Below are positions 27,201 through 29,882 of a stretch of 64,000 nucleotides of DNA, in pieces. This DNA comes from Escherichia coli (GTDB lineage Bacteria; Pseudomonadota; Gammaproteobacteria; Enterobacterales; Enterobacteriaceae), in NCBI RefSeq assembly GCF_050920415.1, contig NZ_CP169309.1; one strand, 5' to 3'. The position numbers are program-made. The stretch's first letter is position 1, and the number at the start of each line of letters is the position of its first letter.

Positions 27201-29882
27201 CCGCCCGTTAACATACTGCCCGCCCAGGAATAAACAATAGTCGCCGGTAACTGACCAAGCCCGGTGGCGATAAAAAACGAGCGAAAACGTATTGACGTCA
27301 AACCGGCAGCATAGCTGATTGGATCGAAAGGGACAAAAGGCAATAACCGGCATACCAGGATAGTGTGTTTGCCGTAGCGAGTGAAAAAGCCGTCCATACT
27401 GTCAAGCATGGTTTTACCGGTTAATTTTTCCACCACTTCGCGGCCCATTACTCTGGCGATAAAAAAGCATAGCGCCGCGCCCGCCATAGAACTGGTCCAC
27501 GACAGCAAGCCGCCCCAGAACGCGCCAAACAGCGACGCATTGGCAAAGGTGATCAAAAATGCAGGCAGCGGTGCAGCAATGGCCTGTAAGATCATTAAAA
27601 AGAATGAGACCAGTGCAGCCTGCGTGCCGTAAGACGCAATAAAGCGTTCAATGCCTTGTTGATCCACGGCGGCAAAGGCTACAAGGCTGCTGTTAATAAA
27701 CTCATAAACGCCGGGAATCAGCGCCCATGCGAGCAGCGCAACAATTAACAAGATGATAATGACGCCACGCCAGAGCCACATTTTACGGTTTTTATCTCTC
27801 ATCTTTCATCTTTGTTGTTCGGTTAAAGAGGTTTTATCAGAAGTGGTCAGTGCCACTTGTTTGTAACGGGCGTAGCATTTAGCAAGCTGAATAAGAATAA
27901 ACAGTATTAGCCCTGCCAGACAAAGTTTGAAAATAAATGATAATGTTATGCCTTCAGTAACAAGGTCGCTGGCCATAAAAGTATAAATAAAGATCCCCGG
28001 CAGAGTCGTGAATGCCGAAATAAAGGTATATGGCCAAAAGGCAATGGCGGTTAATCCGTAGGCGTAATTTTGAATATTGTAAGGAAATAGCGGAATTAAG
28101 CGGGTAAGAATAAGAAAATCGATACCGTTACGTGCAATCCCTTTCTCAATAGACTGAAAGACGGTGGTATCCCCAACATATTTCAGCACCAGTTCTCGCC
28201 CCATCCAGCGAGCAATCAAAAAGGAAACCGACGAAGCGAGCGTTGCTGCAACTAACGAAAGCAGAGTCCCCAAGAATGGACCAAAAATAATGCCACTGCC
28301 AATGACCAGGACACTACCGGGCAGCAGCAGAAGAGTGGCAATAACAAATAACAGAATATAAAGGCTGTAACCGAAAATACCACTCTGGCGAATAAGTGCC
28401 TGCAAGTGAGGAAGATCGCTAATGAAATTGAATATGCCTGAAGCATAAACAAGATAAATTGCCAGAGCAAAAGTCAGACTACCAACAACGAACTTACACT
28501 CAGCTTTCATCGTGGAGATTTCCTATATCAAGCCTTGATAATAGAGAAGTGAAAAACGCGATGACGGTATAACAAACCTAAGCTGGTCACAAATCCTTAC
28601 TGCCAGTTTCTTGATTATCCTCAAGAATCGGCCTCCTGACCTGGAGGATGTCAGGAGGCTGCGTCATTAGCGGCGGAAGGTCGCCCACACAGGCGCGTGA
28701 TCGGACGGTTTTTCCATGCTGCGGATTTCATAGTCGATGCCGGTTTCTACGCAACAGTCTGCCAGCGGTTGGCTGGCGAGCAGCAGGTCGATACGCAGAC
28801 CACGGTTATCGTCAAAACCTTTTGAGCGGTAATCAAACCATGAGAAACGATCTGCTGTTTCCGGATTCGCATGGCGGAAGGTATCCACCAGCCCCCAACT
28901 TATCAGCCTGTCCATCCATTCACGTTCTTCAGGCAGGAAAGAACATTTACCAGTACGCAGCCAGCGTTTGCGGTTCTCTTCGCCAATGCCGATATCCAGG
29001 TCGGTGGGGCTGATATTCATATCGCCCATAATCAGCACCGGATTTTCACGCTTGAGTTCGGTTTCCAAATAATTTTGCAGATTCTGATAAAACTGCGCCT
29101 TCGCCGGGAATTTTATCGGATGGTCGCGGCTTTCACCCTGCGGGAAGTAACCGTTGATCACGGTGACATTGCCCAGCGGCGAGGGGATTTCCGCCATAAT
29201 AATTCGCCGCTGCGCCTCTTCGCCGTCGTCAGGGAAGCCGCGACGCACGGCAATCGGCGTCTCTTTGGTCAGCAGCGCCACGCCATAATGGCCTTTCTGC
29301 CCGTGATAAAACACGTTGTAGCCGAGCTTCGCCACCTCTTCGAGCGGAAACATATCGTCATGAACTTTTGTCTCCTGCAGGCCAATCACATCCGGTTGGT
29401 GCTTTTCGACGATGGCTTCAAGCTGGTGAGGTCTGGCGCGCAGGCCGTTGATATTAAAAGAGACAAATTTCATAGTCGCTGCCATTTATTCAGATAAAGA
29501 GTGCGTGGATGGTAGCAGAATTTCGCTTTGCTTACCGCCTGTTGTTAAGTGATTTGATCGATGGTTGTTAATGATGTCAACGATGGCGCAAAAAATGCCC
29601 GCTTTTGGTGCGCGCTGCGTCAGAATGGCGCAGTAATTTCCAGTAAATTTCGTCAATGATCACAATTCCAGAATTATATTTTACTTCTGCATAACATTGC
29701 GTTTTTTATTCTTTTTATTCACCTGCATCGCAAACGTATTCACTTTATATGCACTTTAAATGCATATGGTTTGGTTATAACTCCTTGATTTCCAGTTAGC
29801 CACCGCGGTTTATGCACTTTTATCACTGGCTGGCACGAACCCTGCAATCTACATTTACAGCGCAAACATTACTTATTATTAA

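Follow-up and report, generated by a model that had tools for sequence, protein, structure and literature searches.

The promoter astCp2 was reportedly described by Kiupakis and Reitzer in 2002 as the sigma-54/NtrC promoter of astCADBE in Escherichia coli K-12. In that strain, CTGGCACGAACCCTGCA was recovered as OS17, a peak in sigma-54 ChIP-seq, and assigned to astC (PMC4591121), and that paper gives OS17 a predicted start 62 nt before astC and the flag 'C', for experimentally confirmed in EcoCyc. Zhao et al. included the same sequence, which they place between -88 and -71 relative to the ATG, among the known sigma-54-dependent promoters, and ast expression was lower without rpoN (PMC2831329). 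An NtrC ChIP-seq peak at astCADBE lies in the spacer (PMC4066584), and gSELEX yielded peaks of both RpoN and NtrC in the astC/xthA spacer (PMC8743547). The ast operon has two promoters (PMC4014581), of which astCp2, the one that depends on sigma-54, was characterized as weak and as a natural target of ArgR (10.1101/086108). Park et al. (2013) reported an ArcA-P footprint of 44 bp and a 10.6-fold derepression of ast in an arcA mutant (PMC3798270). In Salmonella LT2, sigma-54 ChIP-chip detected the site TGGCACGAATGCTGCAAT at astC, and the ast operon was up 2.4-fold with a promiscuous activator (PMC3844500).

We analysed a stretch of 64,000 nucleotides of an E. coli chromosome (the window), which spans gapA to pheT. 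The 445-bp xthA-astC spacer of this chromosome houses TGGCACGAACCCTGCA, 16 bases at 29831-29846 on the plus strand, which a sequence-only reading of the window had taken for a sigma-54 promoter element upstream of astC. Its sequence, its strand and its GG/GC spacing were all verified, and it is almost certainly astCp2, the core promoter at which sigma-54 (RpoN) acts on the arginine succinyltransferase operon astCADBE.

The astC element and its setting

The element is oriented in the sense of astC and lies a short distance upstream of the gene, with 72 nt (about 73 bp) between it and the ATG at 29919, making the earlier estimate of about 75 bp a fair one. Measured against the sigma-54 consensus TGGCAC-N5-TTGCW, TGGCACGAACCCTGCA carries GG and GC exactly one helical turn apart, with GG at 29832-29833 (-25/-24) and GC at 29844-29845 (-13/-12), which is the canonical -24/-12 spacing. 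The sole departure from the consensus is a C for T at -15, the -12 region reading CTGCA and not TTGCA. With GG and GC in these registers, the transcription start is predicted to fall on A29857, and the distance from this base to the ATG equals the 'distance 62' of Table 1 in PMC4591121. A second register through the doubled CTGGCTGGCA was checked by eye; it is without a GC at the matching distance and therefore is not an alternative promoter.

The spacer was compared with that of K-12 MG1655 over 436 bp, which revealed five substitutions (29527, 29724-29725, 29802 and 29807), none of them in or near the element. The element is identical to that of the K-12 astC promoter and matches the published sigma-54 site. 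Sigma-54 and NtrC occupancy, rpoN-dependent expression and an ArcA footprint have all been published on the identical K-12 sequence, and the known nitrogen-regulated ast expression to which the sequence-only reading had referred is documented by the NtrC ChIP-seq and the RpoN/NtrC gSELEX peaks. When the literature was searched in full text for the start coordinates expected in K-12, nothing but unrelated papers turned up. The substitutions at 29724-29725 turn the K-12 CACAT into TGCAT, adding one TGCAT half-site-like motif, and identity of at least 99% over 29400-30000 was found in only 153 of 5424 genomes.

The NCBIfam models for astC, astA, astD, astB, astE and xthA matched at full length and far over their cut-offs. 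The tested stretch matches strain MFDS1022581 at 100% identity, and 5424 of the 5426 complete E. coli genomes contain it. An Rfam search of the astC leader gave no match.

Elsewhere in the window, Rfam recovered the expected Phe leader at 62409-62533 and matched the ES036 (CssrF) sRNA at 38493-38535 on the minus strand, at 38.9 bits just above the gathering score of 37.6 bits. The RefSeq annotation of the identical genome contains an apparently intact gene for a type III effector toxin of the ShET2/EspL2 family (56695-58593, minus strand), located between yniD and thrS. A gene for the type V antitoxin GhoS is annotated at 54007-54297 (minus strand), and the adjacent annotation is without a ghoT-like toxin gene.

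Table 1. Features of the xthA-astC control region and of the ast operon, in window coordinates; positions with a sign are relative to the predicted sigma-54 start.
Feature	Coordinates	Strand	Basis or remark
xthA, divergent neighbour bounding the control region	28667-29473	-	NCBIfam and RefSeq annotation
NtrC-like site 1, TGCCCGCTTTTGGTGCG	29596-29612	.	centre -253; 3 mismatches
NtrC-like site 2, TGCGTCAGAATGGCGCA	29616-29632	.	centre -233; 3 mismatches
Most conserved spacer block	29645-29682	.	CRP-like half-site TTCGTCAATGATCACA (29649-29664) and ARG-box-like stretch (29668-29685)
ARG-box-like region, presumed ArgR binding	29727-29767	.	conservation; best box ATTCACTTTATATGCACT
Putative IHF site, exact consensus AATCAAGGAGTTA (WATCAANNNNTTR)	29778-29790	-	centre about -73
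Sigma-54 core promoter astCp2, CTGGCACGAACCCTGCA (17-mer)	29830-29846	+	sequence, matrix score, publications, conservation
Candidate second promoter astCp1 (sigma-S/sigma-70)	29854-29887	+	start derived from PMC3798270; hexamers predicted from sequence
Predicted sigma-54 transcription start (A)	29857	+	-24/-12 geometry; 62 nt before astC ATG
ArcA operator, four direct repeats, 11-bp phasing	29865-29907	-	+9 to +51 of sigma-54 start; in transcript leader
Shine-Dalgarno GAGG	29910-29913	+	5 nt (29914-29918) to ATG; conserved
Transcribed operon astCADBE (arginine succinyltransferase, arginine breakdown)	29919-35946	+	
astC	29919-31139	+	NCBIfam and RefSeq annotation of 100%-identical genome
astA	31136-32170	+	NCBIfam and RefSeq annotation of 100%-identical genome
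astD	32167-33645	+	NCBIfam and RefSeq annotation of 100%-identical genome
astB	33642-34985	+	NCBIfam and RefSeq annotation of 100%-identical genome
astE	34978-35946	+	NCBIfam and RefSeq annotation of 100%-identical genome

Chance expectation and conservation of the element

By itself the motif is weak evidence and is not significant over 64 kb. The relaxed pattern TGGCAC-N6-TGCA used in the sequence-only reading is expected to match 0.30 times by chance in 64 kb, and at least one match occurred in 28 of 100 shuffles. The sigma-54 consensus with one mismatch was not enriched in the window, with 3 matches found and 3.6 expected. A weight matrix was constructed from the sigma-54 ChIP-seq motifs that Bonocora et al. 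(2015) class as 'intergenic sense', of which 41 remained with astC excluded, and the RpoN matrix scan, which had been suggested as a check, ranked the element at the top of the window on either strand, at 17.86 bits, with the next match at 13.15. The median of the 41 ChIP sites was 15.5 bits, and only 11 of them outscored the astC element. A score of 17.86 bits was reached somewhere in 14% of random 64-kb sequences, and the exact per-position probability of 4.8e-7 translates into 2e-4 matches expected in the xthA-astC spacer in the sense of astC.

We then examined the conservation of the element. The back-translated coding pattern FDEWM[IVM]PVY identified 103 astC loci in Enterobacteriaceae, 96 of which had enough upstream DNA, and these were reduced to 70 sequences of less than 95% identity for alignment. 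The best sigma-54 matrix match within 600 nt was found 115-119 nt before the coding pattern in 94 of the 96 loci, as in the window. CTGGCA (-27 to -22) and TGCA (-14 to -11) were present in all 70 non-redundant upstream regions, the stretch from -31 to -22 was invariant save two single-sequence changes (at -31 and -29), and the spacer bases -17 to -15 took any base. The 17-mer occupied 17 alignment columns with no indel, its spacing being constant across the 70 sequences. A fixed core, a free spacer and a fixed length constitute the constraint pattern predicted by sigma-54 recognition. Within E. coli, the 49-mer at 29822-29870 was identical in 4577 of 5423 genomes, and the two variant genomes that were aligned carried changes at +9 to +11 and at leader base 29879, outside the -24/-12 element.

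Immediately upstream of the element, CACTGGC (with a doubled CTGG, in the region of 29826-29830) was conserved as well, with -30, -28 and -27 unchanged in 70/70 sequences and -31 and -29 in 69/70. This conservation exceeds the known needs of sigma-54 recognition.

Two other K-12 sigma-54 ChIP-seq sites were compared with the window. The intragenic site IS23 (GTGGCGCAGATTATGCT), in ynjE, reads GTAGCACAGATTATGCT here (22416-22432, minus strand); its -24 GG is lost, and sigma-54 binding at this position is therefore probably absent in the window's strain. For OA03 (GCGGCGTGAACCTTGCA), which was assigned to cedA, no match with two or fewer mismatches was found in the window, in which the katE-cedA region lies at about 45500-48300.

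Upstream sites, second promoter and ArcA operator

Scanning the window for the NtrC consensus (TGCACC-N5-GGTGCA-like) gave no enrichment over shuffles, and each of the two NtrC-like sites is singly not significant. The sites were found at the same alignment columns in 58 of 71 sequences (site 1) and 47 of 71 (site 2), against a background of 0.37%. ARG boxes were sought with the 18-bp consensus WNTGAATWWWWATTCANW, which usually occurs in tandem copies 21 bp apart. The best box, ATTCACTTTATATGCACT at 29738-29755, is centred at about -110, has 3 mismatches and is the window's single such match in the spacer, and its column had at most 4 mismatches in 64 of the 71 sequences. Weaker ARG-box-like columns were detected at 29668, at 29686 and, as a pair separated by 21 bp in other species, at 29727 and 29748. 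Matches with 3 mismatches were not enriched in the window, with 10 found and 10.5 expected. The NtrC and ArgR scans proposed in the sequence-only reading thus showed no enrichment in the window but led to sites that are conserved across species, and it is the cross-species comparison alone, not the window scans, that makes the NtrC and ArgR sites credible. The mention in that reading of AT-rich ARG-box-like sequences just upstream was only loosely true: the single box lies 76 bp upstream of the element and such boxes are not enriched, although its position is conserved. The most conserved block of the spacer contains a CRP-like half-site. Lu and Abdelal (1999) reportedly described a CRP site in the control region of ast in Salmonella. 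ArgR binding at the astC promoter is stated in 10.1101/086108.

Between the enhancer and the core promoter, the IHF consensus was present with 0 mismatches in 71/71 sequences. TAA and TTGAT were invariant and the intervening NNNN was variable, only the consensus-specified bases being fixed. This site looked new, but it is already published: PMC2266799 cites Kiupakis and Reitzer for a DNase I footprint showing IHF at astC and describes this evidence as uncurated in EcoCyc as of 2008. The distances from these sites to the GG were nearly fixed, at 54 bp for the IHF site and 94 bp for the ARG box (each in 68/70 sequences) and at 216-217 bp for NtrC site 2 (67/70), with 20 bp from NtrC site 1 to site 2 (67/70). 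The coordinates of the NtrC, ArgR, IHF and CRP-like sites, the sigma-54 start and the looping roles at astC are to be read as predictions.

The published NtrC ChIP-seq interval, U00096.2 1830021-1830101, corresponds to 29824-29904 of the window, which is the core promoter and not the -233/-253 pair. The NtrC ChIP-seq intervals of nac, ddpX, rutA and yeaG likewise coincide with or adjoin sigma-54 motifs. These positions suggest that resolution was limited or that cross-linking took place through the loop.

Downstream of the element, the 43-mer CAGTAAATAATTCGTTATTTATATGTTAATAATAAGTAATGTT from the supplement of PMC3798270 is the exact reverse complement of 29865-29907, and the leader blocks seen to be conserved, TTAACA, AAC and TTTAC, represent the four direct repeats for ArcA reported by Park et al. 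PMC3798270 gives the ArcA footprint as extending from -22 to +22 relative to the start that Fraley et al. mapped in 1998, and on these coordinates that start would lie near 29886-29887, where it is covered by the ArcA operator. A start near 29886 is 29-30 nt past the sigma-54 start and cannot be a product of the -24/-12 element, but it agrees with a second, sigma-S-dependent promoter. The sequence-only reading had named a mapped start inconsistent with the element as grounds for refutation; the start near 29886 is at odds with the element but belongs to the separate sigma-S/sigma-70 promoter, and the claim is supported.

For this candidate promoter, astCp1, the putative hexamers are a -35-like TTTACA (29854-29859) and, after 17 bp, a -10-like TATTAA (29877-29882), or alternatively TATTAT (29874-29879). 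This assignment would explain the strong conservation of -3 to +3 of the sigma-54 promoter. A simple sigma-70 scan of the spacer found no promoter on the plus strand and one match of doubtful meaning on the minus strand; it missed astCp1 because TATTAA is without the final T that the scan requires. A reading of the block TCTACATTT (29848-29856) as the -10 element of a sigma-S promoter that starts near 29862 was dropped, since the ArcA paper puts the start of Fraley et al. at about 29886. The block more likely holds the -35 region (TTTACA) of the second promoter.

Proposed mechanism, rival readings and known systems

In the mechanism that we propose, sigma-54 RNA polymerase would occupy the GG at 29832-29833 and the GC at 29844-29845 as a closed complex that is unable to open the DNA alone. 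Upon nitrogen limitation, NtrC-P would bind the sites about 233 and 253 bp upstream and contact the polymerase via a DNA loop, to whose shape IHF (about -73) may contribute along with ArgR-arginine bound in the ARG-box-like region (around -110). NtrC would then open the promoter by hydrolysing ATP, and transcription would begin near 29857, 62 nt before astC. The second promoter (sigma-S/sigma-70, at about 29886) and the ArcA operator at 29865-29907 would add starvation and anaerobic control.

The sigma-54 site might instead serve mainly to occlude the overlapping sigma-S/sigma-70 promoter, with a parked closed complex repressing it until NtrC fires. Occlusion is favoured by the presence of sigma-54 on the site in mid-log M9 cells, in which the operon is uninduced (PMC4591121), by the candidate -35-like TTTACA of astCp1, which starts 8 bp past the -12 element, and by the conservation of the block from -11 to +12 beyond sigma-54 needs. 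However, ast expression drops without rpoN (PMC2831329), a promiscuous activator increases ast transcription in Salmonella (PMC3844500), and only activation makes sense of the conservation of the NtrC, IHF and ArgR sites. We regard occlusion as the main role of the site as very improbable; it could be an added effect at astC, not a replacement of the promoter role. A broader proposal, that astCp2 is part of a compact switch in which a parked sigma-54 complex dampens sigma-S/sigma-70 transcription of ast, ArcA blocks both promoters and the near-invariant spacing reflects a rigid enhanceosome-like assembly, is tentative and on balance unlikely.

A functionless chance resemblance to the -24/-12 consensus could appeal to the 28% of shuffles that match the relaxed pattern and to the 14% of random 64-kb sequences that reach the matrix score, but the position, the strand and the distance to astC all fit, the 70 species share an invariant core around a spacer that varies, and sigma-54 occupancy has been published for E. 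coli (PMC4591121) and Salmonella (PMC3844500). Because of the position, orientation and deep conservation of the element, chance is untenable, and we give it next to no weight. We likewise assign a negligible likelihood to the reading in which the conserved bases are the site of another regulator, for instance an ArgR half-site or ArcA, that happens to resemble a sigma-54 element. TGCA-type half-sites do recur in the spacer (29690, 29750, 29761 and 29813), and the conservation of CACTGGC immediately before the element goes beyond the known needs of sigma-54 recognition. Against this, conservation tracks the sigma-54 matrix position by position, with GG and TGC fixed, the spacer free and the length fixed; moreover, the ArcA repeats lie elsewhere, and the stretch of the element scores poorly as an ARG box.

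The flagged 16 bases are thus the already known, well-studied sigma-54 promoter of astCADBE, an ordinary find. As a textbook promoter that has already been mapped by ChIP-seq, gSELEX, footprinting and genetics, astCp2 means little as a discovery; its value is that of a positive control, a real sigma-54 promoter identified from sequence alone. The family-wide comparison shows which bases and distances are constrained in the ast control region, and this could be used in engineering or modelling the promoter.

Compared with astCp2 of K-12, the promoter in the window has the same 17-mer, lies equally far from astC and is flanked by the same genes, with no difference of substance. The astC promoter of Salmonella Typhimurium (STM1303) is located identically and shares the TGGCACGAA...CTGCAAT core, and it is sigma-54-bound and activator-responsive; its spacer bases are TGC, whereas those of E. 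coli are CCC, which fits the free positions across the family. The sigma-54 promoter glnHp2 resembles astCp2 in being weak, in having NtrC sites at a distance and in the DNA-bending protein that is bound between these and the promoter (10.1101/086108). It is IHF-assisted and NtrC-dependent, and the predicted astC loop contains an ArgR region in addition to an IHF site, so that arginine would also control the output, unlike at glnHp2. The predicted NtrC sites of astC, at about -233 and -253, are unusually distant. At crl (Zafar et al., 2014, as cited in PMC4591121), a sigma-54 site adjoins or overlaps the promoter of another sigma factor, as at astC; the crl site is reported to act by occlusion, whereas the astC site is a productive promoter.
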